Source: Eledone cirrhosa
Taxonomy: Eukaryota
Direction of reading: 5' to 3'
Assembly (NCBI GenBank): GCA_964016885.1
Contig: OZ024742.1
Span: 182,838,001-182,902,000 of the forward strand
Length of the DNA: 64,000 nt
A program made the translations under genes and the position numbers. This document shows positions 4,275 through 60,431 of the stretch, piece by piece; position 1 is the first letter of the stretch, and each line of letters opens with the position of its first letter. The notes below the pieces were generated by a model. That model saw only the letters and a program-made list of their open reading frames with translations. It had not been told where the DNA came from and made no database searches.

Positions 4275-5424
4275 TTTATTAAAATAACAGATCAAAGTTT
4301 AAGCAAAGAATCACTGCTTTCACCCTTAACGGGATCTTCTGAAACTAACAAAGTGAATCTGTGACAGTAGAAGTGAATATTTCAAAAAACGTTGCAACCG
4401 GAGGAAGACAGGAAGACGATACTTTGGTTCGTGGAAACGTTCCCTGGCAAACACACACGTCCCGTAGGGCCTACATAGGGTTAACCGCCAATAGATTCAA
4501 GCAGCGGCTTTACATGCATACCCATTCTTTTCGTTATCCTCTAAGAAGGAATATGACGTCACTTTCAGCTTATATCTGGAGTCTAAAAGACAACCACACC
4601 CAATATAAGTTACACTGGAAGATCCTAGCTTGGGCTAGATCGTATAACGGAAATGAAAGACCATGTGACTTCTGCGCCGCTGAGGCCCTGGAAATACTCT
4701 ACGCCACAGACCACATCTTAAACAAAAAATCTGAGGCAATTTCGGCTTGTAAACATAAATTGCACAACTGTTTCCTGTCTTACAGCCCCACATTATACCC
4801 TAACGGATAGTACGATCTATGCGCGGATATTTTACGTCTTGATGTGGTTGCTAAGTATATGTTATGTTTATACCATTACTTATTTGCATAGGTAAGTATA
4901 TATTACCTGTATGTTTTGTGAAGGTACGTATACTTTCTCATACGTATATCTGATTGTATATGTTATGGCGTATATTTTTTATATATTCTGGTACATATGC
5001 TTTTGGTTATGTGTATACGTGAGTTTTGCGTCTGTGTGAGTATGCGGGTTCGTACGTATGTAGGGTGTGTGTTTATGTGTACTTCGTGTTTTTACTATTA
5101 GTTTTTACTTCACATTCATAAACAATGTTTTTCTCTAAACAGTTATTTTCCATTGGACAACTATTATGATTTCTGCAATTGCAATTATTTACGTTACCAT
5201 TCATTGGTCCCTCCTTGTGCCTGTGCCCATTGGTTTATCTTATTTATGTTAATGGTTTTATCCTTGTTATTTGAGTTGCTGTTTACTCTGTCAGTGTTTC
5301 TGTGCTATTGTGAGTTATCTCTTTATATTTAATTCCCAAATTTCTATTGTTAATCTTCGCTATATTTTCGGCTATGCTTTTGGTTGTCGAGTAAGAGAGT
5401 TTAATTGTGCGTCGATTAAAGATG

Positions 5425-6571: not shown

Positions 6572-7175
6572 TCTTCTTCTTCTTCTTCTTCTTCTTCTTC
6601 TTCTTCTTCTTCTTCTTCTTCTTCTTCTTCTTCTTCTTCTTCTTCTTCTTCTTCTTCTTCCTGAGAGGATCGTGGGGGCACAGTCCTCAAACACTCCTTC
6701 CAATGTGTACTGTCAGAAGCACCCTTCTCCAACAGATTCGGGTGGAGAAGGGTGAGACGAGTCAAGCTCATGCATGTTATCCAACCATCTTGATCGGGGT
6801 CTATCCCTGGATCTCCTGTTGGTTGTTTTTCCCGCAAAATCTATACTGCGATTTTTTCCTGCGATTCATGAACATAGGTGAGGGTTGGAACGAATACCGA
6901 ATTGAAGATAGCGAGTTTGACTTTAACGCCTACCTCTCTTCTCCTGATTACTGAATGCTGAACCTGGCGCATTACTGCACCAGCTCCGGCAATTCTTGCG
7001 CTTAATTCAGCCCCATGCCTTCTCGTGAACACGACCCCGAGATACTTGAACTTCTCTACCTGCTTCAGTGGAACTCCATTTACATGTAGAGAGCATTGAA
7101 CATGCTTCCTTGTAAGGACGAGTGCCTCAGTTTTCGCAGTACAGATTTTCAATTCAGCCATGCAGTACTCGGCAT
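6572..7175 (-). mobile_element. RTE-clade LINE 3' end with (GAA)n tail
   Basis: KTEALV...VEKFKYLGVVFT...ELSARIAGA...KVKLAIFNSVFVPTLTY..ES. The (GAA)n tail is at 6572-6660. Confidence 0.85.
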
Positions 7176-7425
7176 CAAATCTATCGAGCGCAACAGCATC
7201 TTCTAGTGTACACGAGATGCATCTGGGAGCGGTGACTAATCTCTCAGAGGCAGAGGTCACAAGAGCAGTTAAAGAGCTCAAAGGCGGTAAGGTCGCCTCA
7301 AAGGCGGTAAGGTCGCCGGGAATGATGAAATCTGACCCGAGATGTCAAAAGCCTTGCAAAGAGAAGTATTTTTTGGCTGACTCGTGTGTGCCGTGTGACC
7401 TGGAGCTCTTGAAATGCACCTAACT
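7175..7425 (+). pseudogene. Inverted upstream LINE segment (pre-RT region)
   Basis: SEAEVTRAVKELKGGK..., followed after a short duplication by GNDEI*PEMSKAL, which matches the K..G.D.I..E motif preceding non-LTR RT domains. Confidence 0.65.
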
Positions 7426-9815: not shown

Positions 9816-11209
9816 TCTTTATATATATAAAAGCGAGGATGTGTGTGTGTGTGTGTACAAATTTGCATGCATAAGGCTTTCACAATTACCAACTGAATTT
9901 GACCAACGTTCAACGTGCACAGGTCGCTAAGATTGTCACATCACAAACATTTTTCAAATCGACCCACGTTGAGCAATAAAAAATCGATATCAAAATTATC
10001 GGTAGAAATATTGATGTAAGGGAGATAACAAACTTTGATAATCCTCATAAAAAAGGGAGAAATCCTTTTCACCAAATATGCCCCGTAAAAGAATGTATGC
10101 ACATATTGGCTATCGCTCGAAGAAAACAATGCGTGTAAATGACGCTCCGCCGATAACCGAAAATAGACAATCACTAAATGCAGTGAACACAGTTATTGCA
10201 ACATCTTTGTCCGCCGCTGAGCGTCGGTTAGTGCGGCGTACCAATAATGCTAAAGCAATTGCTGGGCGCGAGCTGCAGAGACTACAGATCAACGTGAAAC
10301 ACGCCTTGCTATGGATGCTACAGATACTGCTGCAGCAAGATCTGCAGAGACAGTACAAAAATATGAAAGGCAGCAACTTTGCTCCCTGGTGGAAGGACGG
10401 CACATTCTGTTTTTAAATTGCCCCTTGATCTGGCAAAATTGGAAACTCCTACTTGTCATATCACCAAAGACTCCGAAAGGGCTCATCTGCTGCGAAGGTG
10501 TCACCTTATTGTTTGGGATGAGTGCACAATGGCGAACAAAGGTGCTCCTGAAGCATTAGAGAGGCCTTTGCAAGACATACGGGATTGCAGTGATGTTATG
10601 GAGGGTGTCACCCTTCTGCTATCAGGAGACTTCAGAAAGACTCTTCCTATAATACCGAAAGGAACAAGAGCAGATGCGGTAAATGCATGTCTTAAGTCTT
10701 CACCATTGTGGCGACAAGTGACATCATTAAGACTAACTACCAACATGCGTGCAAGGTTGCATGGGGACCCTCTGTCATCAACATTTTCTAGAGACATTCT
10801 TACAATAGGAGAGGGTAACTTACCTCCGGATACAGATGGACACATAGCAATTGATCACATCTGCAATGTAGTTGAAACTGTCGATGATCTCAAGGCAAGT
10901 GTATTCCCGAACTGGCGTGATAACTATACGAATCTTGATTGGCTATGCGAAAGAGCCATTCTTGAACCCACAAATATCACGGTTAGCTGTATTAACGATC
11001 AACTTCTTCAGCTTCTTCCTGGATGTCCACGGATATATAAATCTATTGATACTGTATGTAAATCTATTGTAAATCTATTGATACTGTAATTATTGAAGAC
11101 TTCTGCTTATTTTGACAGGTTGGGGACAGATAATGTTCTTCTTTTACTTCCTAGCTGTATATTCTTAGCATAATTTCAAACCCCGAGCAGCGCCGGGTAA
11201 ATCTGCTAG
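9816..11209 (+). mobile_element. Internally deleted Helitron
   Basis: A|TCtttatatatataaaag 5' end; 3' hairpin cccgagcagcgccggg then CTAG|T; contains RepHel pieces. Confidence 0.9.
10078..11089 (+). pseudogene. Helitron RepHel remnants: putative N-terminus (MPRKR...) fused to a Pif1-family helicase fragment
   Basis: LPGGRTAHSVFKLP, IVWDECTM, LLSGDFRKTLP, LTTNMR and WLCERAIL are Pif1/Helitron helicase motifs. Confidence 0.9.
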
Positions 11210-13684
<2,475 letters not shown>

Positions 13685-14405
13685 ATGGAAAAATTTGAAC
13701 AGGAACAAAACAGAGAAGCAGTACAACGAATGTTTATTTATTTCACGCTCTGGAGAGTGGGGTGTTGGTGGGGAACGACGTTTCGGGCATAAGCCCTTCC
13801 TCAGGTGAGAAGTGTGTGGGAACAGAGTTCAAAGGGTGTGTAGGGGAGTGGTGGAGAGACATATAGCGACAGGAAACGGTGCGAATGAAGTTAAAAATAA
13901 AAATAAAAATAAAAATAAAAATAAAGCATGATCAAAATACAAGAAATGAAATAAATTTAAATATAAAAGCATGATCAAAATAAACTGAAATTAAAAGGAG
14001 GATAAAACAGGTGGTGGGAGGGTGTGGGGTGTGTAGGGGTGGTGGCGGGTGGAGTGGGGAGAGGGAGACGGGGTGTCCGAGCGGGGAGGGCTGAAGGTGG
14101 TGTGTGTGTGTGTAGGTGTACGTGTGTGTGTGTGTGTGTGTGTGCGTGTGTATGTGAAAGTAAGGGTTGGGGGAAGAACGGGGTTGCATGTTCAGGAAGA
14201 GGTATGTGTGGGGGGGGCTTGTAGGTCGAAGTGTCTGTGCATGTGTGGATAGAGGGGTGGGGGGAGAGGAATCAGGAGGCTGAGGGTGTAAATATGTGGT
14301 GGAAAGCACGTGTGAGTGGGGTTTAAGCGTGTTGTGGGTGTAGGTGGCGTGTGGAGAAGAAAAAAATGTTTTGGGGTGTGTGTGTGGGTGAGTTATATAG
14401 GTGAT
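13685..14405 (-). mobile_element. Orphan non-coding HHR-bearing element (PLE pLTR or retrozyme-like) between (TA)n arrays
   Basis: C/A-rich minus strand, HHR motif near its 3' end, (TA)n on both sides, no recognisable protein. Confidence 0.55.
13775..13806 (-). ncRNA. Minimal hammerhead ribozyme motif
   Basis: Minus strand: ac-CTGAGGA-a-gggc(ttat)gccc-GAAA-cg-TC-gt. GUC cleavage triplet and palindromic ACGT stem III. Confidence 0.8.
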
Positions 14406-16716: not shown

Positions 16717-18570
16717 CCATTTCTTCATGTAGTGTTATGACATCAAAGAACTACTCTGGCTTTGTTATTTACATCTGCCTCAGTGGGCATGTGAACACAC
16801 TTTTGTACTGTTCGTTCAGTATTTCACATATCTCTTGGGGGATTCTCGGTTAATGAACCGTCTGTATTGAAGAATAGCCCAATCTTGCAGTGTACCGAGG
16901 CAGTTTCTTTTGAAAATTTAAAGAAGGCCTTAGGGTTTGTTTTAATATTTTCTATGGCCCTGCTTTCTTTCTTTGCCCTCTCATTTTCATGGGAAAGTTT
17001 GAGTGCAATCTCCGTGCCAATTAGTGCACATTTCAAATAGGATTCCTTCTTGTTTTTGTTTTCTTGTTATACATTCAACTGGTTTGAGAGCTTGGTTCTA
17101 CGTCTCATAAGGATTTTCCTATCTCTGGGAATAAGATTTTTGTGTCTATTTGCTTTTTTCTCCGGGACAAACTATATGCAAAAAGTTTGTATCATTGTCA
17201 TGAAGTATTGAAATTGTGTGTTGGTGTCTTGTGTGGCGGTGTTTTCGCTCCATATTTGCTTCCGTATTTCTCTCTTGATCTTTTTCCAGTTAGCCTTGTA
17301 GAAGTTAAGGCTGGATAACGTCCCGGTGCTTCTTGATGGTTGTGTCTCTGTTGGTTCTCTCGGACCACATATCATTAGTTCTACTAAGTTATGATCCGAG
17401 AAAATTGTTGGTGTCACCTTTACATATAGGGGTCCAGGACATTTTCGCCTCTTGTTGGGAGGAGTACTGCTTGTTCCATGAACAGCCTGTGTTGTGAGGG
17501 CCAGCAGGGACTCCGTCTGTCTCTGTTCTATTGACGTCATTCCAGGGAGGAGGTGGCCCTCAGGTCATTTGACCTTTAGCAGGTTGAAGTCTCCCAGCAG
17601 TAGAATGTTGAGACCCTGGTCCAGTTTGTCAAGGACCTCTTCTATCCTACTGAGGCTATCCTCAAATTTACCCTCATGACTGGGGGCATCGGGTGGCCTA
17701 TATGTGACACATATTACTGTCTTTAGTTGCTTCATATATACTATCAGTGTGTCACAGACTGAGTTTGAATGTGTCAACAGTATAATTGGTGTGACATCTT
17801 CACGGATATACAGAGCAACCCCACCATGAGTTCTCTCCGTCCTGTCCGAACGAAATACAGTACATTTCGGTATATGTATTTCTGCAGCTGGTATACTGCT
17901 TGTCAGGTGCGTTTTGGTTAGTGCCATGAATAATGCTTGATTGTTTATGGCTAAATCTTTCAGGTAGGAAATTTTACTCATGTTAGTGAGTTTCACCAGG
18001 CCTCTGACATTCAGCAGCAGCACTGGCGTGACTTTTGGGGTGCCAGCAATGGCTGTCGGTATGACACTTGGCCTGGTGTCAGCGGCAGCCACTCTGCGTC
18101 CCTTAATTGTGGTGGTCTTGAGTGCTGGGGTGGGTGACCCTAGCTCTGAAACCGATGCAGCCAGGTCAGCTGTCCCACAATCTTCTCTGCCATCACTAAA
18201 AAAATGTTTCTGCTCTGCTGCTGCCATCTGTATCTCGTCGGCATGTGTGTGCCTTCTCCTTGTTGGCGCGGCACGCGCGACATCAGCATACTTCTGGGCG
18301 GCTTGTTTTGGCTTTGGCTGGGGCATGTTGCGGGAATAGGATGGGCATAGTTCGCTTGGGGCCTGGGGTGAGCGAATCTGCAGCCATCCCTGTCTCTCCA
18401 TGCCAGCAGGTCTCGTTCCTGAAGAACTTGCACATTATCTGGGTGGTTTTCTTGCTCCCAGTGTCTCGGTGCTTTCTGTTCTTCCTTTGGTCAGTTGTCC
18501 ACTGGTCCCTCTGCGCTTGGTTCTCCTTCGGAATGTGATTTCTCTTCTCCCCTTTACCGTTTGCTTGTTA
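16717..18570 (-). mobile_element. Degraded APE-type LINE, 5' half only (Cys/His-rich N-terminal part, AP endonuclease, linker; no RT)
   Basis: LLLNVRGL, ALTKTHL, RSDRTERTHGGVALYI, TYRPP, LLGDFNL, SDHNLV, NFYKANW, IKTNPKAFFKF; frameshifted. Confidence 0.85.
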
Positions 18571-26083: not shown

Positions 26084-26213
26084 ATATTTATTAAAATAAC
26101 AGATTAAAGTTTAAGCAAAGAATCGCTGCTTTCACCCTTAACGGGATCTTCTGAAAGATCCCGTTAAGGGTGAAAGCAGCGATTCTTTGCTTAAACTTTA
26201 ATCTGTTATTTTA

Positions 26214-26221
<8 letters not shown>
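26084..26221. repeat. Perfect palindrome, 67-bp arms, loop ctga
   Basis: Arms 26084-26150 and 26155-26221; the arm matches 4275-4340. Confidence 0.95.
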
Positions 26222-28729: not shown

Positions 28730-28931
28730 TATATTGAACAATAAAAGGCAACTTTAAATTCATTATAACTCCTGTCCTAAGGTACGACATAAAATAAAAT
28801 AATTTACACCGCTCAGTCCAGAAATCGAGCCCATGATTTCTGGACTGAGCGGTGTAAATTATTTTATTTTATGTCGTACCTTAGGACAGGAGTTATAATG
28901 AACTTAAAGTTGCCTTTTATTGTTCGATATA
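28730..28931. repeat. Near-perfect palindrome, 97-bp arms, 8-nt loop
   Basis: Arms 28730-28826 and 28835-28931, 2 mismatches. Confidence 0.95.
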
Positions 28932-48621: not shown

Positions 48622-48664
<43 letters not shown>

Positions 48665-48869
48665 ATATTTGGGGAGGGTCATATTTGCGTAATATTGCCA
48701 GAATTAATAACAGAACACACTCACTGTTTGGTTGGTTTTCGCTTCTCGCTGTCTTTTATATATATATATCTGCGATCTAACTTACTCGGTCCTCAATGTT
48801 GCCATTGACTGACCGGCGGTCAAAAATAATACAGATACAATATAGACAAACACATATATATATAGTTTA

Positions 48870-48907
48870 CATAAATCTTTCGTTGCACATCTGCAACATC
48901 GTCAGTG
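48870..48907 (-). ncRNA. Hammerhead ribozyme motif (inverted copy)
   Basis: Reverse complement of 52122-52159. Confidence 0.7.
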
Positions 48908-49186
48908 GTGTTATATTCATTGTTCCTCCTGTTGTGTTGTATGTCTACGCCATTTTTTTTTTTTGTTCAGTCTGTCTATATATTTATTTATTTATTTGCT
49001 TGTTTGTTTATCTTATTTTATTTTGTCTTCTTTGCGCATGCGTTTGCGTGTGTGTATAGTGTTATGTGTGATGTGTGATGTGTGACTAGTGTGTATAGTG
49101 TTGTCTGCTGGGTGACTAGTGTGTGTTTATGTGCTTGTGTATGTATTTATTTATCTTATTTTATTTAATTTAATTTACTTATTTAT

Positions 49187-51715
49187 TTATACTTCTCTTA
49201 GGTCAGTGTTGTTTGTTTGGGTGTTGTTGTTGTTCCACTCATTCTTTCTGTTTAGCTTTGGTCTTCTAATTTCTATTTCACTGGCCTCTCTGATTTGCCT
49301 ATCTGCTGGGTCATTCCTATGTTTAGATATTATTCTAATTTCTATGTTGTCTATGTTACCGTCATGATGTTGTCTAGCATGTTCGTATAGTACTGACCCG
49401 TTTTTTCGTCCTTTTAGTTCCCCCCAGTGTTGGTCTATCCTTTCACCTATGCTACGAGCTGTCTCACCTATGTATGTTGTTGTCGTGTTTCTGCAAGTAC
49501 CCTCTGTACATCTTATGCTATAGACTACGTTTCTAGTTTTACAGTTTATCCGGGGGTTCACCTTACATATGATACATTTCCTATTGGTACAGTGGGTTTT
49601 CTTAAAAGGGTAGGTTTTGCTGATCAGGGATTTTATGGTGGTTCCTGGCTTTTCTACCACCTTTATTTTTAAGTGGGTCTTTCTCAGGGCCTTTCTACAC
49701 TGGTTAGCTAATTTCCCTCCAGGGGTGGCGTCCACAAACATGACACTCTGATATCTCTGGTTGTCGTACCATGATGTGGCCTTCCCTATCTTATGTCTAG
49801 CCCTATCTAAGCTATTCCATGATTTGCTCCTGTATAGTGGGCAAATTCCTTTCATGTCCAGTTCTATGAGGGTCTTATACTTTTCCATGGCTCCTTCGTA
49901 TACTCTGACTCTGTCTCTTTGGTTGTAGCCAGAGAACTGCATGCGGTTGATGAAGTGTTGGATGTGTCCTTCCATTTCTGTTGGGTCGCACATGCTGGAC
50001 ACATTCTTCATCACTCGTACCAAATCTGCGATCAGAATATTAAACTTAGCACTACTGGACATTGCTGAGTTTTTGAGTATCAGGTATTTGGAGGCCATGG
50101 GTTTAGCATAGTGTGAGTGGAGAATTTGGGCTCTCTCGTCTGTAGTGTTAATCCAGAGTTCTGTGTCTAATACAGGTAGTCTATTGTTAGGGTGTTTGGA
50201 AGGGAAGTCTATAGTTACAGTTATACTCTGGTGTATGGAATTAGCTATCTGCTGGATGCTTTCCATCGTGCTACGTTCTAAATCAAACTTGTTAGTGCTC
50301 TCTAGTGGGGGTGTTCTTATAACTATATTGATATCGTCTACATAACGAGAGTACATGATGAGGTCTATGGAGCTTTCATTAAGGAGATCTTTAAGTCTCC
50401 TTTCCCACCATACCATGAAAAGGTTGGCAACATCGCCAGCTATGCTGACGCCGATGGCTGCTCCCTCATTTTGGGTGTAGATTTTCTCATTGAACTTAAA
50501 TATGTGGCCCTTTAGGGTAGTTTTGATACTAGCCCCTATTGCATGTGCGACCATTTTTCTTACCTGATCAGTGTTTTGGGGGGTCCGTATAGCTTTGGTC
50601 CACCCAATCCACCTTCCTATGGGAGTCTTTTTAGCCATTGAGGTTATGGTGGGGGGTCTACCTCTTATAGGTCTACTAGGGCAGAAACATCTAAGGTCAT
50701 GGCTGTCTAGGTAGTCAGTGTCGTAGGTAAGTCTAAGTAGGAGGCCCAGTTCGTCTGTGTCGACGTCGCAGAACTCCACCTCACTCTCAATGATCATCTC
50801 CACACATCTTTTCACAGCAAAATCAATGTTAATGGATGGGTACAGTGACACCACATCCATGCTGCCTATTATGCAGTTGGATAGGCTCCTGTTTTTGTTG
50901 CACTCACTGATTCTGCTGAGGAGGTCCTCTGTACTTTCACATACATCTGGGGACATCTTGATTATGGGGCGTATAACCATTGAGAGGAAGTAGGAGATCC
51001 TGTAGTTGCTAGCTATATTAGCTCCGCATACAGGTCTTGTTGGTGGTCCTATTGTCGGGTCGTCGACTGTCTTGTGGTCTTTGCGGAGCCCATACAAGGG
51101 TGGTATGCCATTGTTAGACGCCTGGAAGTTGTTGGCAGTGCGTCTGCTTGGCTTTAGGATGTCAGTCCACATCATCATGTGAGCGTTGAGGATTTTTTCT
51201 CTCCCATCGTGTGTTAGTTGTGCAACTTCGCTCGTGTTGGTGATGTGGGGTTGCATTGCCTCGATGTAGTTCGGCATGCTATCTATTGACATCCTACCAG
51301 ACTTATCTGTGGGTAGACACACTACCTCACCATCCCTTGTGCGCTGCTTGAGGCTAACCAAGCCTTCTACAGGTTTTATCCCAAGTTGTTGGGCCTCTGG
51401 TCTGCTCTGTCTCATAGTGTACCTGTCTACTACTTGTCTAATCTTATTTCTAGCTATGGTGAACTGTGCCTCCGTCTCGTCATCTATTTGTTGTGGTATG
51501 CAAACTCTTTTATTAAAGGGTAACCTCGTAGGATAGATATTACCCATCTTATATGTTTTGTCAGCTGGGTTGAAAAATAGTTTCTCTAAGGGGTTGTCGT
51601 TATTTCTATCGTCATAGTTGTGTGTGTTGCTATTATTGTTATCATGGTGGTTGTTGTTGTTTCTATCCTTAGCATTAATATTATTATTGTTATGATTGCT
51701 AGATGTATTATTGTT
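49187..51715 (-). pseudogene. 5'-truncated PLE RT-GIY-YIG ORF (intact from the Asn tract to the stop)
   Basis: Same protein as the C-terminal ~843 aa of the full ORFs except I->T (WINTTDER). The tracked start MPICW(V) comes from the junction. Confidence 0.9.
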
Positions 51716-52121
51716 GACCCAGCAGATAGGCAAATCAGAGAGGCCAGTGAAATAGAAATTAGAAGACCAAAGCTAAACAGAAAGAATGAGTGGAACAACA
51801 ACAACACCCAAACAAACAACACTGACCTAAGAGAAGTATAAATAAATAAGTAAATTAAATTAAATAAAATAAGATAAATAAATACATACACAAGCACATA
51901 AACACACACTAGTCACCCAGCAGACAACACTATACACACTAGTCACACATCACACATCACACATAACACTATACACACACGCAAACGCATGCGCAAAGAA
52001 GACAAAATAAAATAAGATAAACAAACAAGCAAATAAATAAATAAATATATAGACAGACTGAACAAAAAAAAAAAAATGGCGTAGACATACAACACAACAG
52101 GAGGAACAATGAATATAACAC

Positions 52122-52159
52122 CACTGACGATGTTGCAGATGTGCAACGAAAGATTTATG
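52122..52159 (+). ncRNA. Atypical minimal hammerhead ribozyme motif in pLTR 1
   Basis: ca-CTGACGA-t-gttgca(gatg)tgcaac-GAAA-gatt-TA-tg. Confidence 0.7.
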
Positions 52160-52346
52160 TAAACTATATATATATGTGTTTGTCTATATTGTATCTGTAT
52201 TATTTTTGACCGCCGGTCAGTCAATGGCAACATTGAGGACCGAGTAAGTTAGATCGCAGATATATATATATAAAAGACAGCGAGAAGCGAAAACCAACCA
52301 AACAGTGAGTGTGTTCTGTTATTAATTCTGGCAATATTACGCAAAT

Positions 52347-55300
52347 ATGACCCTCCCCAAATATAACAATATCTGTTTCGACACACGATTTCATATAAAA
52401 AACCTCGCAAAACTAATTCATCGCCGCTATGGCATTAGCTTGTGCCAAGCTGAAAGGTTATTGAAAGACACTGTTTTCTGTTATATAAAAACTACAATAA
52501 CAACAGAACAAATCCGCTTCTTAAAACACTGTGTTTCCTCCAAAACATACACAACAAACATATCAAAACAAGTAAATAATTTATTATTGAACAAAACACA
52601 AGCTGAACGGCTAAAACACACAATAACAGTTAATATGAAAAGAACAACATACACAAAAGTCAACGCACTCTACAGACAAAAACGCATCAACGGTAAGGAA
52701 ATCCGAAATCTCATCACAGCAAACGAGAGAGATGACTTCATGAGCGTCATCCGACGCGAAACGAAATATGCTCAAAACGAATGCTGTAGGCATTTCAAGA
52801 AGAAATTAGAATGGATGAATAAGAAAAAACTACAAGAAAGGAAAATCGAATATTCTCAAAAATACCCAGATAACATCGACAACATCCGTATGAGTGATGT
52901 AAAACTACCGGAAGAATTTACCAATGACCACACAGTAAATATCTATGGGAACACTTTAATCAGTGAACAAGAACAACAAATCCTAAAGTTACCACCAAAA
53001 TTTGCCATCTACAAAAAGATTAATCCTATGGAATGCAAAACGGAGCTGGAAAAGTGTTTCACAAAAATACGTTGGAATGCAAAGGTAAACAACAACAACA
53101 ACAATAATAACGGTAGTAGTAATATAAACAATAACTCTGGGTATAGAAATAACAGCCATAACCATAACAATGGCAGGAAAGTGAGAAATAGTGATAATGG
53201 TAATAATACTAGCGATAGACAGAACAACAACAACCACAATAATAATAATAATAGAAACGTTAACCACAGACACAGCAACAGTGACCACAGTAGTAATAAC
53301 GGTAACAATACGAACAACAACAACAACAATAACCACAGTGGTAATAATGGAAATAGTACATGTAGCAACATCAACAAAAACAAGAAACATAATAATAGTA
53401 ACAACCACAATGGTAGAAATAGCAGTAACAACAACAATAACGGTGAAGTAAACAACAATACATCTAGCAATCATAACAATAATAATATTAATGCTAAGGA
53501 TAGAAACAACAACAACCACCATGATAACAATAATAGCAACACACACAACTATGACGATAGAAATAACGACAACCCCTTAGAGAAACTATTTTTCAACCCA
53601 GCTGACAAAACATATAAGATGGGTAATATCTATCCTACGAGGTTACCCTTTAATAAAAGAGTTTGCATACCACAACAAATAGATGACGAGACGGAGGCAC
53701 AGTTCACCATAGCTAGAAATAAGATTAGACAAGTAGTAGACAGGTACACTATGAGACAGAGCAGACCAGAGGCCCAACAACTTGGGATAAAACCTGTAGA
53801 AGGCTTGGTTAGCCTCAAGCAGCGCACAAGGGATGGTGAGGTAGTGTGTCTACCCACAGATAAGTCTGGTAGGATGTCAATAGATAGCATGCCGAACTAC
53901 ATCGAGGCAATGCAACCCCACATCACCAACACGAGCGAAGTTGCACAACTAACACACGATGGGAGAGAAAAAATCCTCAACGCTCACATGATGATGTGGA
54001 CTGACATCCTAAAGCCAAGCAGACGCACTGCCAACAACTTCCAGGCGTCTAACAATGGCATACCACCCTTGTATGGGCTCCGCAAAGACCACAAGACAGT
54101 CGACGACCCGACAATAGGACCACCAACAAGACCTGTATGCGGAGCTAATATAGCTAGCAACTACAGGATCTCCTACTTCCTCTCAATGGTTATACGCCCC
54201 ATAATCAAGATGTCCCCAGATGTATGTGAAAGTACAGAGGACCTCCTCAGCAGAATCAGTGAGTGCAACAAAAACAGGAGCCTATCCAACTGCATAATAG
54301 GCAGCATGGATGTGGTGTCACTGTACCCATCCATTAACATTGATTTTGCTGTGAAAAGATGTGTGGAGATGATCATTGAGAGTGAGGTGGAGTTCTGCGA
54401 CGTCGACACAGACGAACTGGGCCTCCTACTTAGACTTACCTACGACACTGACTACCTAGACAGCCATGACCTTAGATGTTTCTGCCCTAGTAGACCTATA
54501 AGAGGTAGACCCCCCACCATAACCTCAATGGCTAAAAAGACTCCCATAGGAAGGTGGATTGGGTGGACCAAAGCTATACGGACCCCCCAAAACACTGATC
54601 AGGTAAGAAAAATGGTCGCACATGCAATAGGGGCTAGTATCAAAACTACCCTAAAGGGCCACATATTTAAGTTCAATGAGAAAATCTACACCCAAAATGA
54701 GGGAGCAGCCATCGGCGTCAGCATAGCTGGCGATGTTGCCAACCTTTTCATGGTATGGTGGGAAAGGAGACTTAAAGATCTCCTTAATGAAAGCTCCATA
54801 GACCTCATCATGTACTCTCGTTATGTAGACGATATCAATATAGTTATAAGAACACCCCCACTAGAGAGCACTAACAAGTTTGATTTAGAACGTAGCACGA
54901 TGGAAAGCATCCAGCAGATAGCTAATTCCATACACCAGAGTATAACTGTAACTATAGACTTCCCTTCCAAACACCCTAACAATAGACTACCTGTATTAGA
55001 CACAGAACTCTGGATTAACACTATAGACGAGAGAGCCCAAATTCTCCACTCACACTATGCTAAACCCATGGCCTCCAAATACCTGATACTCAAAAACTCA
55101 GCAATGTCCAGTAGTGCTAAGTTTAATATTCTGATCGCAGATTTGGTACGAGTGATGAAGAATGTGTCCAGCATGTGCGACCCAACAGAAATGGAAGGAC
55201 ACATCCAACACTTCATCAACCGCATGCAGTTCTCTGGCTACAACCAAAGAGACAGAGTCAGAGTATACGAAGGAGCCATGGAAAAGTATAAGACCCTCAT

Positions 55301-55979
55301 AGAACTGGACATGAAAGGAATTTGCCCACTATACAGGAGCAAATCATGGAATAGCTTAGATAGGGCTAGACATAAGATAGGGAAGGCCACATCATGGTAC
55401 GACAACCAGAGATATCAGAGTGTCATGTTTGTGGACGCCACCCCTGGAGGGAAATTAGCTAACCAGTGTAGAAAGGCCCTGAGAAAGACCCACTTAAAAA
55501 TAAAGGTGGTAGAAAAGCCAGGAACCACCATAAAATCCCTGATCAGCAAAACCTACCCTTTTAAGAAAACCCACTGTACCAATAGGAAATGTATCATATG
55601 TAAGGTGAACCCCCGGATAAACTGTAAAACTAGAAACGTAGTCTATAGCATAAGATGTACAGAGGGTACTTGCAGAAACACGACAACAACATACATAGGT
55701 GAGACAGCTCGTAGCATAGGTGAAAGGATAGACCAACACTGGGGGGAACTAAAAGGACGAAAAAACGGGTCAGTACTATACGAACATGCTAGACAACATC
55801 ATGACGGTAACATAGACAACATAGAAATTAGAATAATATCTAAACATAGGAATGACCCAGCAGATAGGCAAATCAGAGAGGCCAGTGAAATAGAAATTAG
55901 AAGACCAAAGCTAAACAGAAAGAATGAGTGGAACAACAACAACACCCAAACAAACAACACTGACCTAAGAGAAGTATAA
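52347..55979 (+). CDS. PLE polyprotein, 1210 aa: basic N-terminal domain, Asn-rich insert, reverse transcriptase, Cys-rich linker, GIY-YIG endonuclease
   Basis: TDKSG, LYGLRKDHK, RPV, SMDVVSLYPSI, QNEGAAIG, RYVDD, LPVLD; C-x4-C-x2-C linker; VVY..C...C...YIGETAR...R...H...H...E...LNR. The Cys linker suggests a Neptune/Nematis-type PLE (not certain). Confidence 0.97.
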   Translation: MTLPKYNNICFDTRFHIKNLAKLIHRRYGISLCQAERLLKDTVFCYIKTTITTEQIRFLKHCVSSKTYTTNISKQVNNLLLNKTQAERLKHTITVNMKRTTYTKVNALYRQKRINGKEIRNLITANERDDFMSVIRRETKYAQNECCRHFKKKLEWMNKKKLQERKIEYSQKYPDNIDNIRMSDVKLPEEFTNDHTVNIYGNTLISEQEQQILKLPPKFAIYKKINPMECKTELEKCFTKIRWNAKVNNNNNNNNGSSNINNNSGYRNNSHNHNNGRKVRNSDNGNNTSDRQNNNNHNNNNNRNVNHRHSNSDHSSNNGNNTNNNNNNNHSGNNGNSTCSNINKNKKHNNSNNHNGRNSSNNNNNGEVNNNTSSNHNNNNINAKDRNNNNHHDNNNSNTHNYDDRNNDNPLEKLFFNPADKTYKMGNIYPTRLPFNKRVCIPQQIDDETEAQFTIARNKIRQVVDRYTMRQSRPEAQQLGIKPVEGLVSLKQRTRDGEVVCLPTDKSGRMSIDSMPNYIEAMQPHITNTSEVAQLTHDGREKILNAHMMMWTDILKPSRRTANNFQASNNGIPPLYGLRKDHKTVDDPTIGPPTRPVCGANIASNYRISYFLSMVIRPIIKMSPDVCESTEDLLSRISECNKNRSLSNCIIGSMDVVSLYPSINIDFAVKRCVEMIIESEVEFCDVDTDELGLLLRLTYDTDYLDSHDLRCFCPSRPIRGRPPTITSMAKKTPIGRWIGWTKAIRTPQNTDQVRKMVAHAIGASIKTTLKGHIFKFNEKIYTQNEGAAIGVSIAGDVANLFMVWWERRLKDLLNESSIDLIMYSRYVDDINIVIRTPPLESTNKFDLERSTMESIQQIANSIHQSITVTIDFPSKHPNNRLPVLDTELWINTIDERAQILHSHYAKPMASKYLILKNSAMSSSAKFNILIADLVRVMKNVSSMCDPTEMEGHIQHFINRMQFSGYNQRDRVRVYEGAMEKYKTLIELDMKGICPLYRSKSWNSLDRARHKIGKATSWYDNQRYQSVMFVDATPGGKLANQCRKALRKTHLKIKVVEKPGTTIKSLISKTYPFKKTHCTNRKCIICKVNPRINCKTRNVVYSIRCTEGTCRNTTTTYIGETARSIGERIDQHWGELKGRKNGSVLYEHARQHHDGNIDNIEIRIISKHRNDPADRQIREASEIEIRRPKLNRKNEWNNNNTQTNNTDLREV

Positions 55980-56258: not shown

Positions 56259-56296
56259 CACTGACGATGTTGCAGATGTGCAACGAAAGATTTATG
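56259..56296 (+). ncRNA. Hammerhead ribozyme motif in spacer/pLTR 2
   Basis: Identical to 52122-52159. Confidence 0.7.
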
Positions 56297-56483: not shown

Positions 56484-59400
56484 ATGACCCTCCCCAAATA
56501 TAACAATATCTGTTTCGACACACGATTTCATATAAAAAACCTCGCAAAACTAATTCATCGCCGCTATGGCATTAGCTTGTGCCAAGCTGAAAGGTTATTG
56601 AAAGACACTGTTTTCTGTTATATAAAAACTACAATAACAACAGAACAAATCCGCTTCTTAAAACACTGTGTTTCCTCCAAAACATACACAACAAACATAT
56701 CAAAACAAGTAAATAATTTATTATTGAACAAAACACAAGCTGAACGGCTAAAACACACAATAACAGTTAATATGAAAAGAACAACATACACAAAAGTCAA
56801 CGCACTCTACAGACAAAAACGCATCAACGGTAAGGAAATCCGAAATCTCATCACAGCAAACGAGAGAGATGACTTCATGAGCGTCATCCGACGCGAAACG
56901 AAATATGCTCAAAACGAATGCTGTAGGCATTTCAAGAAGAAATTAGAATGGATGAATAAGAAAAAACTACAAGAAAGGAAAATCGAATATTCTCAAAAAT
57001 ACCCAGATAACATCGACAACATCCGTATGAGTGATGTAAAACTACCGGAAGAATTTACCAATGACCACACAGTAAATATCTATGGGAACACTTTAATCAG
57101 TGAACAAGAACAACAAATCCTAAAGTTACCACCAAAATTTGCCATCTACAAAAAGATTAATCCTATGGAATGCAAAACGGAGCTGGAAAAGTGTTTCACA
57201 AAAATACGTTGGAATGCAAAGGTAAACAACAACAACAACAATAATAACGGTAGTAGTAATATAAACAATAACTCTGGGTATAGAAATAACAGCCATAACC
57301 ATAACAATGGCAGGAAAGTGAGAAATAGTGATAATGGTAATAATACTAGCGATAGACAGAACAACAACAACCACAATAATAATAATAATAGAAACGTTAA
57401 CCACAGACACAGCAACAGTGACCACAGTAGTAATAACGGTAACAATACGAACAACAACAACAACAATAACCACAGTGGTAATAATGGAAATAGTACATGT
57501 AGCAACATCAACAAAAACAAGAAACATAATAATAGTAACAACCACAATGGTAGAAATAGCAGTAACAACAACAATAACGGTGAAGTAAACAACAATACAT
57601 CTAGCAATCATAACAATAATAATATTAATGCTAAGGATAGAAACAACAACAACCACCATGATAACAATAATAGCAACACACACAACTATGACGATAGAAA
57701 TAACGACAACCCCTTAGAGAAACTATTTTTCAACCCAGCTGACAAAACATATAAGATGGGTAATATCTATCCTACGAGGTTACCCTTTAATAAAAGAGTT
57801 TGCATACCACAACAAATAGATGACGAGACGGAGGCACAGTTCACCATAGCTAGAAATAAGATTAGACAAGTAGTAGACAGGTACACTATGAGACAGAGCA
57901 GACCAGAGGCCCAACAACTTGGGATAAAACCTGTAGAAGGCTTGGTTAGCCTCAAGCAGCGCACAAGGGATGGTGAGGTAGTGTGTCTACCCACAGATAA
58001 GTCTGGTAGGATGTCAATAGATAGCATGCCGAACTACATCGAGGCAATGCAACCCCACATCACCAACACGAGCGAAGTTGCACAACTAACACACGATGGG
58101 AGAGAAAAAATCCTCAACGCTCACATGATGATGTGGACTGACATCCTAAAGCCAAGCAGACGCACTGCCAACAACTTCCAGGCGTCTAACAATGGCATAC
58201 CACCCTTGTATGGGCTCCGCAAAGACCACAAGACAGTCGACGACCCGACAATAGGACCACCAACAAGACCTGTATGCGGAGCTAATATAGCTAGCAACTA
58301 CAGGATCTCCTACTTCCTCTCAATGGTTATACGCCCCATAATCAAGATGTCCCCAGATGTATGTGAAAGTACAGAGGACCTCCTCAGCAGAATCAGTGAG
58401 TGCAACAAAAACAGGAGCCTATCCAACTGCATAATAGGCAGCATGGATGTGGTGTCACTGTACCCATCCATTAACATTGATTTTGCTGTGAAAAGATGTG
58501 TGGAGATGATCATTGAGAGTGAGGTGGAGTTCTGCGACGTCGACACAGACGAACTGGGCCTCCTACTTAGACTTACCTACGACACTGACTACCTAGACAG
58601 CCATGACCTTAGATGTTTCTGCCCTAGTAGACCTATAAGAGGTAGACCCCCCACCATAACCTCAATGGCTAAAAAGACTCCCATAGGAAGGTGGATTGGG
58701 TGGACCAAAGCTATACGGACCCCCCAAAACACTGATCAGGTAAGAAAAATGGTCGCACATGCAATAGGGGCTAGTATCAAAACTACCCTAAAGGGCCACA
58801 TATTTAAGTTCAATGAGAAAATCTACACCCAAAATGAGGGAGCAGCCATCGGCGTCAGCATAGCTGGCGATGTTGCCAACCTTTTCATGGTATGGTGGGA
58901 AAGGAGACTTAAAGATCTCCTTAATGAAAGCTCCATAGACCTCATCATGTACTCTCGTTATGTAGACGATATCAATATAGTTATAAGAACACCCCCACTA
59001 GAGAGCACTAACAAGTTTGATTTAGAACGTAGCACGATGGAAAGCATCCAGCAGATAGCTAATTCCATACACCAGAGTATAACTGTAACTATAGACTTCC
59101 CTTCCAAACACCCTAACAATAGACTACCTGTATTAGACACAGAACTCTGGATTAACACTATAGACGAGAGAGCCCAAATTCTCCACTCACACTATGCTAA
59201 ACCCATGGCCTCCAAATACCTGATACTCAAAAACTCAGCAATGTCCAGTAGTGCTAAGTTTAATATTCTGATCGCAGATTTGGTACGAGTGATGAAGAAT
59301 GTGTCCAGCATGTGCGACCCAACAGAAATGGAAGGACACATCCAACACTTCATCAACCGCATGCAGTTCTCTGGCTACAACCAAAGAGACAGAGTCAGAG

Positions 59401-60116
59401 TATACGAAGGAGCCATGGAAAAGTATAAGACCCTCATAGAACTGGACATGAAAGGAATTTGCCCACTATACAGGAGCAAATCATGGAATAGCTTAGATAG
59501 GGCTAGACATAAGATAGGGAAGGCCACATCATGGTACGACAACCAGAGATATCAGAGTGTCATGTTTGTGGACGCCACCCCTGGAGGGAAATTAGCTAAC
59601 CAGTGTAGAAAGGCCCTGAGAAAGACCCACTTAAAAATAAAGGTGGTAGAAAAGCCAGGAACCACCATAAAATCCCTGATCAGCAAAACCTACCCTTTTA
59701 AGAAAACCCACTGTACCAATAGGAAATGTATCATATGTAAGGTGAACCCCCGGATAAACTGTAAAACTAGAAACGTAGTCTATAGCATAAGATGTACAGA
59801 GGGTACTTGCAGAAACACGACAACAACATACATAGGTGAGACAGCTCGTAGCATAGGTGAAAGGATAGACCAACACTGGGGGGAACTAAAAGGACGAAAA
59901 AACGGGTCAGTACTATACGAACATGCTAGACAACATCATGACGGTAACATAGACAACATAGAAATTAGAATAATATCTAAACATAGGAATGACCCAGCAG
60001 ATAGGCAAATCAGAGAGGCCAGTGAAATAGAAATTAGAAGACCAAAGCTAAACAGAAAGAATGAGTGGAACAACAACAACACCCAAACAAACAACACTGA
60101 CCTAAGAGAAGTATAA
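56484..60116 (+). CDS. Second, identical PLE polyprotein (1210 aa)
   Basis: Same translation as 52347-55979; offset 4137 bp. Confidence 0.97.
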   Translation: MTLPKYNNICFDTRFHIKNLAKLIHRRYGISLCQAERLLKDTVFCYIKTTITTEQIRFLKHCVSSKTYTTNISKQVNNLLLNKTQAERLKHTITVNMKRTTYTKVNALYRQKRINGKEIRNLITANERDDFMSVIRRETKYAQNECCRHFKKKLEWMNKKKLQERKIEYSQKYPDNIDNIRMSDVKLPEEFTNDHTVNIYGNTLISEQEQQILKLPPKFAIYKKINPMECKTELEKCFTKIRWNAKVNNNNNNNNGSSNINNNSGYRNNSHNHNNGRKVRNSDNGNNTSDRQNNNNHNNNNNRNVNHRHSNSDHSSNNGNNTNNNNNNNHSGNNGNSTCSNINKNKKHNNSNNHNGRNSSNNNNNGEVNNNTSSNHNNNNINAKDRNNNNHHDNNNSNTHNYDDRNNDNPLEKLFFNPADKTYKMGNIYPTRLPFNKRVCIPQQIDDETEAQFTIARNKIRQVVDRYTMRQSRPEAQQLGIKPVEGLVSLKQRTRDGEVVCLPTDKSGRMSIDSMPNYIEAMQPHITNTSEVAQLTHDGREKILNAHMMMWTDILKPSRRTANNFQASNNGIPPLYGLRKDHKTVDDPTIGPPTRPVCGANIASNYRISYFLSMVIRPIIKMSPDVCESTEDLLSRISECNKNRSLSNCIIGSMDVVSLYPSINIDFAVKRCVEMIIESEVEFCDVDTDELGLLLRLTYDTDYLDSHDLRCFCPSRPIRGRPPTITSMAKKTPIGRWIGWTKAIRTPQNTDQVRKMVAHAIGASIKTTLKGHIFKFNEKIYTQNEGAAIGVSIAGDVANLFMVWWERRLKDLLNESSIDLIMYSRYVDDINIVIRTPPLESTNKFDLERSTMESIQQIANSIHQSITVTIDFPSKHPNNRLPVLDTELWINTIDERAQILHSHYAKPMASKYLILKNSAMSSSAKFNILIADLVRVMKNVSSMCDPTEMEGHIQHFINRMQFSGYNQRDRVRVYEGAMEKYKTLIELDMKGICPLYRSKSWNSLDRARHKIGKATSWYDNQRYQSVMFVDATPGGKLANQCRKALRKTHLKIKVVEKPGTTIKSLISKTYPFKKTHCTNRKCIICKVNPRINCKTRNVVYSIRCTEGTCRNTTTTYIGETARSIGERIDQHWGELKGRKNGSVLYEHARQHHDGNIDNIEIRIISKHRNDPADRQIREASEIEIRRPKLNRKNEWNNNNTQTNNTDLREV

Positions 60117-60393: not shown

Positions 60394-60431
60394 CACTGAC
60401 GATGTTGCAGATGTGCAACGAAAGATTTATG
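60394..60431 (+). ncRNA. Hammerhead ribozyme motif in terminal pLTR 3
   Basis: Identical to 52122-52159. Confidence 0.7.

Follow-up and report, generated by a model that had tools for sequence, protein, structure and literature searches.

A probable minimal type I hammerhead in the terminal repeats of a Penelope-like element amplified in the genome of Eledone cirrhosa

Minimal hammerhead ribozymes (min-HHRs) were described by Cervera and de la Pena (2014) in the pLTRs, the terminal repeats of metazoan Penelope-like elements (PLEs), where they occur as thousands of mostly solo copies (PMC4209133). As given in that paper, the consensus is CUGANGAH-G...C-GAAAN-palindrome-NU-H, activity in vitro is low and a dimer mechanism is put forward (PMC4209133). 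Its Fig. S3 includes helices I of 2 bp in D. virilis, D. rhopaloa, D. kikkawai, Culex and Oikopleura, and the Aedes forms carry 4-nt loop-3 inserts, U17 or A17 being common (PMC4209133). A tandem-dimer idea also appears in PMC6765202, which cites Lunse et al. For PAc (Poseidon of Anolis), Frangieh et al. (2024) reported that cleavage takes place only with protein and that the uncut RNA serves as template (PMC11167929). Reverse transcription of PAc initiates at two sites inside the start of the ORF, which leaves an optional tail; no reads ended at the cut site, and core mutants were without effect on insertion in vitro (PMC11167929). As regards cephalopods, Craig et al. (2021) list a single octopus hammerhead, which belongs to the Hydra clade and whose stem III is complete (PMC8557442), and a 2026 paper on the repeats of O. 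vulgaris reports recently active PLEs, its main text containing neither the word "ribozyme" nor "hammerhead" (PMC13282606). Our search of the openly accessible literature found no paper on the motif of the families considered here.

The window analysed in this work is a stretch of 64,000 nucleotides of the Eledone cirrhosa genome (contig OZ024742.1, positions 182,838,001 to 182,902,000). Its forward strand carries at 52122-52159 (C3 = 52124) the motif CA-CUGACGA-U-GUUGCA(GAUG)UGCAAC-GAAA-GAUU-UA-UG, which has the anatomy of a minimal type I hammerhead and is hereafter called the window form of family A. The core CUGANGA...GAAA...UH is present in type I order. A 2-bp stem I, CA/UG, with its 5' strand CA at 52122-52123, is followed by CUGACGA (52124-52130), an extra U after A9 (52131), a 6-bp stem II, GUUGCA/UGCAAC, with a GAUG loop (52132-52147), the GAAA core box (52148-52151) and helix III/loop 3, AGAUUU (52151-52156). 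The predicted cut lies 3' of A52157, between 52157 and 52158. The motif was thus located as the original prediction had written it, with identical copies at three further sites, and the extra base after A9, an A or U as cleavage base and two changed stem II pairs relative to a second form were all confirmed. The 1-bp stem III of that prediction was an underestimate, since the helix consists of an A-U pair plus G-C/G-U pairing around two bases. AGAUUU is self-complementary at 6/6 positions, counting G-U, for a double hammerhead; helix III is absent from the predicted monomer fold.

Among the sampled copies, the core and U16.1 are intact in 263/265, and G17 occurs in just one. The unpaired base between 9 and 10.1 is U or G, and G10.1-C11.1 is found in 34/34 aligned rows, which were collected with a pattern demanding both bases. 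The helix lengths depart from those of a canonical type I hammerhead (6-bp helix I, 4-bp helix II), being 2 bp and 6 bp here. An AUAGU/ACUAU extension of helix I pairs in older A copies, with 69% of cells paired overall, and scores about the same as the direct register. A search of 52000-52300 against Rfam at E<=10, a type of search that had been proposed with the original prediction, returned no hammerhead family, only miRNA matches driven by microsatellite sequence. On the reverse strand of the window, a further CUGAGGA-stem-GAAA match at 13781-13804 has a 4-bp stem II (GGGC/GCCC) and no evident stem I.

The motif is closest to the PLE min-HHRs, with which it shares a position in the pLTR, the base between 9 and 10.1, G10.1-C11.1, a long helix II and a short helix I. 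It differs from them in three respects. Its 2-bp stem I is CA/UG, not all G-C, and is weaker than the 2-bp CC/GG helix I of D. virilis (PMC4209133). Its loop 3 is wobble-palindromic (GAUU) or imperfect (GAAC, GGAC). Finally, its host is a cephalopod, whereas the molluscs in the supplementary table of PMC4209133 are Lottia and Crassostrea only. The 5' leader of Penelope of D. virilis likewise holds a hammerhead whose helix I is 2 bp, ~125 nt after the mapped start (PMC2377424; PMC4209133), but an intron ends at helix I there and no intron-like deletion is found here. In the 79 copies measured, the sole 143-nt deletion is flanked by short AAATAAAATAA-type repeats and lacks GT-AG, and a 30-nt length difference is a change in repeat units instead of an intron. 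One tandem array (L237, G000:C1:181303500-181304700) has a 143-nt deletion between the ORF end and the ribozyme while its ORFs are open, so the pLTR may be able to do without the missing stretch. With PAc, the element shares a ribozyme in the pLTR, internal initiation sites, an optional tail and the lack of ends at the cut, but in PAc the motif and the start codon overlap, whereas the putative ribozyme here lies 223 nt upstream of it.

Hammerheads of non-LTR retrozymes also have type I topology, an unstable palindromic helix III and, in amphibian forms, dimer-enhanced cleavage (PMC7229834; bioRxiv 2026.07.22.740005). In contrast to the window motif, their helices I and II measure 6 bp and 4 bp, respectively, and their loops make contact with each other. 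A canonical type I hammerhead family is present in the same genome (L117, L119, L126-L128, L130-L133 and L137; around position 1501), with a stem I of 6-7 bp, a 4-bp stem II, a UGCA palindrome, C17 and a distal CCAGCAG/CUGCUGG stem. Its pattern gives 388 matches as compared to 71 for the control, and it is probably a non-LTR retrozyme.

The host of the window form is a PLE in partial tandem arrangement on the forward strand. An upstream pLTR of 658 nt (51715-52372), the 3' end of a 5'-truncated PLE that stops at the commonest insertion 3' end (52372), precedes an intact ORF of 1,210 aa (52347-55979) and a second intact tandem ORF, also of 1,210 aa (56484-60116). Two identical hammerhead copies follow on the same strand, one 4,137 nt downstream of the first, at 56259-56296 (C3 at 56261), and one at 60394-60431 (C3 at 60396), and the array ends at ~60687 in (TA)n. 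On the reverse strand, an inverted 5'-truncated copy (48657-51718) carries its own hammerhead at 48870-48907 (C3 at 48905) and ends in (TA)n. The tandem period is 4,137 nt, both outer ends of the array adjoin (TA)n, and each pLTR of the tandem and inverted copies contains one hammerhead. At another locus (L208, G000:C1:42148600-42151200), four tandem units lie ~270-300 nt apart, each of them a pLTR end corresponding to 52198-52372 without the ribozyme. Elsewhere in the window are near-perfect, MITE-like inverted repeats (95-97%; 28730-28931 and 26084-26221). Mobile-element fragments, identified by eye from translations, lie at 4349-4810, 10367-11089, 17172-18434 and 6841-7344, the types recognised being the end of another GIY-YIG PLE, a Helitron-type helicase resembling PIF1, a LINE endonuclease and the end of a LINE RT.

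The encoded protein comprises an Asn-rich tract, a telomerase-like RT, a CX4CxxC linker and C-terminal GIY-YIG-type endonuclease motifs. Its nearest named protein is from Octopus vulgaris (68% identity). Pfam matches are weak, RVT_1 falling below the cut-off and GIY-YIG appearing in 2 homologues only, and a PDB sequence search gave weak RT matches only. The predicted structure (pLDDT 90.3) has TERTs as its top structural matches (Z 14.2, rmsd 4.6, 292 aligned). The linker reads CTNRKCIIC, with the next Cys 8 residues on and then C, C, H and H, as judged by eye against Fig. S2 of PMC8557442. This layout resembles that of Nematis/Neptune-type PLEs, in which the RT precedes GIY-YIG and a CX2-5CxxC linker, with short spacing in Nematis as here, and CCHH are present; the partial tandem, the inverted truncated copy, the tail and the (TA)n targets are shared as well (PMC8557442). 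Assignment to the Hydra clade, in which CCHH is absent and CxCX5C and DKT are found, was rejected, the element here having CX4CxxC, the CCHH residues and DKS. The Asn-rich tract occupies ~160 codons before the RT, at about 53080-53570; Adineta PLEs also have N-rich inserts, but positioned differently (PMC3846280).

The element departs from Nematis in an insertion between RT3 and RT4, 128 aa separating these motifs as compared to about 60 aa (PMC8557442). By hand count in Fig. S1 of that paper, the RT3-RT4 spacing of canonical PLEs is ~58-60 aa, and its canonical PLEs with a C-terminal endonuclease are without the insertion (PMC8557442). In our set, the RT3(A)-RT4(B) spacing is 126-132 aa in 79/80 measurable sequences, including octopus and sea cucumber proteins. 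The ~70 extra residues, within aa 655-783 of the ORF, stand at the position of the telomerase IFD, are conserved and are well predicted. A literature search found no description of a long RT3-RT4 insertion. PLEs with this insertion possibly represent an undescribed lineage.

Copy numbers were obtained by pattern searches of the 3.0 Gb genome, with the reversed pattern as control; a DNA similarity search with the young pLTR had given no match, probably since such a search passes over very common words. A pattern covering both forms gave 16,249 + 16,319 = 32,568 matches and the reversed control 0; the paired A-form stem II gave 10,925 matches and the mismatched A/B hybrid 30. The exact window subfamily has 1,463 copies. 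The second form, that of family B, lies on the forward strand at 2536-2578 (C3 = 2540), in a short truncated element at about 2226-2787. It has stem I GUCA/UGAC, stem II GUCACA/UGUGAC, AGAACU and U17. The original prediction had taken this form for an old relic with a 3-bp stem I, UCA/UGA; its stem I is in fact 4 bp, and 5 bp in B2, and the 40 scored of 1,144 candidates share 96-100% identity with the B copy of the window. The proteins of families A and B are ~65% identical. The comparison is therefore one of two amplified PLE families, and not of a young family with a decayed one.

Between A and B, alignment identity is 43-51% in the flanks and 71% in the core. Stem II is 97.5% paired over 34 distinct copies, with three pairs altered on both sides, and its pairing score was reached by 0/500 shuffles, a test that shared descent of the rows inflates. 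Wobble intermediates were seen by eye among the 100 matches listed (GUCGCA/UGCGAC 3, GUCGCA/UGUGAC 2 and GUUGCA/UGCGAC 2). They connect the A and B stems II by way of wobble pairs; the sites are CpG, so that part of this variation may be decay after insertion. An endonuclease tree separates A from B at 100/100 and resolves little of the branching within A; its row A1dup_L015 was disregarded since it had a neighbouring B endonuclease, and L125, a non-family row placed in class A2, was excluded from alignment A1. The endonuclease DNA of the window subfamily is ~1% from that of its sister subfamilies. Because this subfamily is so young, an intact core cannot show continuing selection within it.

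Stem I varies in a graded manner, in a non-random sample consisting of the first places on contig C1 and the top matches. All subfamilies retain pairs 2.1-1.1 and 2.2-1.2, and stem II is intact through the A series. In lineage A, pair 3 is mismatched in nearly all copies. Beyond it, pairs 4 and 5 are formed in 25/26 and 23/26 copies of A3, respectively; A2 and A1b form pair 4 and lack pair 5 (2+1); and the window form, in 33 copies, has neither, which leaves a stem I of 2 bp. Stem I runs uninterrupted over 3 pairs in L046 and over 4 in L151, each of them a single copy. The stem I of family B is 4 bp, with a fifth pair in 10/13 B2 copies. Along lineage A, GAUU replaces GAAC in loop 3, and A1 has A instead of U at base 17. 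Stepwise erosion of stem I along lineage A would be an observation new to this locus, suggested by these sequences, the order of the A subfamilies being weakly resolved.

In folding predictions, stem I of the monomer has a probability of 0.00-0.03 in the window form, as compared to 0.73-0.89 in B1, so that the window monomer is predicted to leave stem I open. Stem II has a predicted pairing probability of 0.89-0.98. The predicted fold hides the cut site inside a local hairpin. In a dimer, loop 3 would pair with itself at 6/6 positions for GAUU, wobbles included, and at 4/6 for GAAC or GGAC; true loop 3 palindromes are rare, GAUC being found in 1/90 B copies.

To map insertion ends, 84 copies were collected by means of a 27-mer that lies 3' of the predicted cut. 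The 3' ends are concentrated at 52372 (46/84), 52430 (15) and 52415 (7), that is 215-273 nt past the cut, and correspond to ORF +26 and +69/+84. At the other side, 40 of the 84 copies extended 5' past the DNA examined, and 44 5' ends were mapped, 4 of them from one small tandem array. None of these 44 falls at the predicted cut (52157-52159), where 0.17 would be expected if ends were uniform, a result that excludes a pile-up only. The 5' end closest to the cut, 52155 in L188, was rejected as an inversion junction. Because most insertions span an intact ribozyme, their templates were uncut or rejoined RNA.

When copies were anchored on the ribozyme, 15/40 mapped 5' ends of family B were found to precede C3 by 55-90 nt (P 3e-10 relative to a uniform distribution), in a zone at 2450-2487 of the window. 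The window subfamily has 11/28 of its 5' ends 53-92 nt upstream of C3, or 8/25 with inverted pairs counted once (P 6e-5, the bins being picked post hoc). This pile-up covers 52032-52071 on the forward strand and is followed by a YY1-type motif, AAAATGGCG, at 52073-52081, the whole zone being 52032-52081. A CATGCGCA motif, which we take to be that of NRF1, lies upstream of the YY1-type motif in both families. In both, the pile-up zone closes at the retained AAAATGGCG / AAGATGGCG, which match the YY1 motif AANATGGN(C/G) (PMC3491394). From this arrangement we infer that the pile-up zone is the transcription start region of the pLTR; microhomology in A-rich DNA is an alternative. In four sets of contigs of unknown kind, depth over the pLTR is well above that over the ORF and falls near 52410-52430. 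A sigma-70 promoter scan was discarded as inapplicable to a eukaryote.

Overall, we consider that the motif is probably a minimal type I hammerhead of a PLE terminal repeat, which would cleave itself weakly and would need either a dimer formed via helix III or the protein of the element. Transcription would begin ~55-90 nt upstream of the core. Two copies would then pair through helix III, or the protein would steady the fold, and occasional cuts would result; where two tandem copies were cut, RNA of unit length would be set free, and the hammerhead of the 3' pLTR would sit upstream of the start sites of reverse transcription. Weak, gated cutting is favoured because constant cutting would strip the capped leader. 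The original prediction had proposed a variant hammerhead needing dimerisation, protein help or long-range pairing. The anatomy fits the first two needs, but the variant is not new: Cervera and de la Pena (2014; PMC4209133) had already described all of its "atypical" traits and put forward the dimer model, and Frangieh et al. (2024; PMC11167929) had reported the help from protein. Some of our data sit uneasily with the favoured reading. The double hammerhead of the window form is computed to lie 5.0 kcal/mol above two free monomers (B1 +2.8, B2 -0.7, canonical family C +5.9 kcal/mol), in a crude energy model that does not count core contacts; the tandem copies are 4.1 kb apart; and the GAAC loop 3 of family B pairs at just 4/6 positions in a dimer.

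An unlikely but substantial alternative is that the ribozyme of the youngest subfamily is dead or nearly so, a recent relic that has not yet decayed, while family B and older A copies still cut. Stem I indeed shrinks from 3-4 bp (L046, L151) through 2 bp, a mismatch and 2 bp (A3) and 2+1 (A2, A1b) to 2 bp, the predicted cut site is buried in its hairpin, and the subfamily with this weakest stem spreads well, as judged from its 1,463 copies and many identical intact ORFs. The ineffective core mutants of the anole element point the same way (PMC11167929). On the other hand, loop 3 changed from GAAC to GAUU as stem I weakened, which raised dimer pairing from 4/6 to 6/6, and the two proximal pairs of stem I and stem II stayed intact across the A series. 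The uncertain order of the A subfamilies also weakens the case for progressive loss. At the far end of the scale, it is extremely improbable that the conserved stem-loop serves the pLTR chiefly in binding or in connection with its promoter, catalysis being incidental. The motif does follow closely on the inferred start region and the shared YY1-type motif, and insertions keep it uncut, but what is conserved is the hammerhead core and the pairing, not the sequence of the stem, with the flanks far below the core in identity between families.

The original prediction had also drawn a distal helix that could close the domain and act as a switch, and it is very doubtful that such a helix replaced the eroded stem I, closing the catalytic domain and possibly working as a context-dependent switch. 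The helix can be drawn, between a 5' arm at 52081-52096 and a UG-rich 3' arm at 52175-52187 on the forward strand, as 13 bp made of 7 bp, a 3-nt bulge and 6 bp. It is the predicted fold (P 0.97; z -2.2 for 52081-52187) for an RNA that begins at 52075, or more generally after ~52060, and its 3' arm is confined to subfamilies with the weakest stem I, being exact in 83/83 window-type, 40/48 other A1 and 9/13 A2 copies but in 0/31 A3+ and 0/90 B copies. One U-A/C-G swap, in 2 copies, would preserve the helix, against A x G mismatches in 7 copies. The duplex energy, -13.2 kcal/mol, is at chance level: when one or the other arm was shuffled 1,000 times, 21% and 18% of the shuffles equalled it. Its 5' arm ranks 25th of 264 upstream 20-nt windows, 24 of which pair better with the 3' arm, because a UG-rich arm faces upstream DNA rich in A and C. 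Of 128 A copies, 34 lack the 3' arm. In the window form the helix is weakened by the loss of 2 nt, and pairing is worse with its own 3' arm (-13.2) than with the A1b arm (-17.2). Moreover, an upstream arm, AUAUAGACAGAC at 52047-52058 on the forward strand, forms 12 bp with 52178-52189 and outcompetes the distal helix, whose probability drops to 0.01 once 52047-52058 is included; this arm is probably within the transcript, because insertion 5' ends reach 52032. The probability of stem I remains 0.00 even with the distal helix formed. The distal helix thus likely plays no part in the ribozyme, and the appeal to long-range pairing is not supported. Cutting only in concatemers, which had been linked to this switch, is an existing published hypothesis for PLE hammerheads (PMC4209133); the insertion ends mapped here bear no trace of cut templates.

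A more elaborate scenario combines these elements: in the lineage now spreading, stem I would have been reduced in successive steps, from 4-5 bp to CA/UG, as loop 3 gained full self-complementarity, and a UG-rich arm of recent origin would pair with either of two arms further upstream. The resulting switch would take one fold in RNA from the start site and another in read-through RNA and cut only tandem transcripts; its host would be a PLE lineage so far undescribed, in which the fingers of the RT carry an insertion of telomerase size. We regard this full combination as highly unlikely.

Under the favoured reading of a weak, dimer- or protein-dependent minimal hammerhead, the ribozyme result enlarges a described class by one host and two families. 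The locus and its relatives also provide a test set for the function of PLE hammerheads, since one genome holds stems I of 5, 4, 3, 2+2, 2+1 and 2 bp and the loops 3 GAAC, GGAC and GAUU. As the graded series occurs in elements with intact ORFs, the strength of stem I could be related to cleavage and to dependence on protein. The mapped insertion ends independently match the uncut-template result obtained in vitro (PMC11167929). For the classification of PLEs, the long RT insertion may outweigh the ribozyme.
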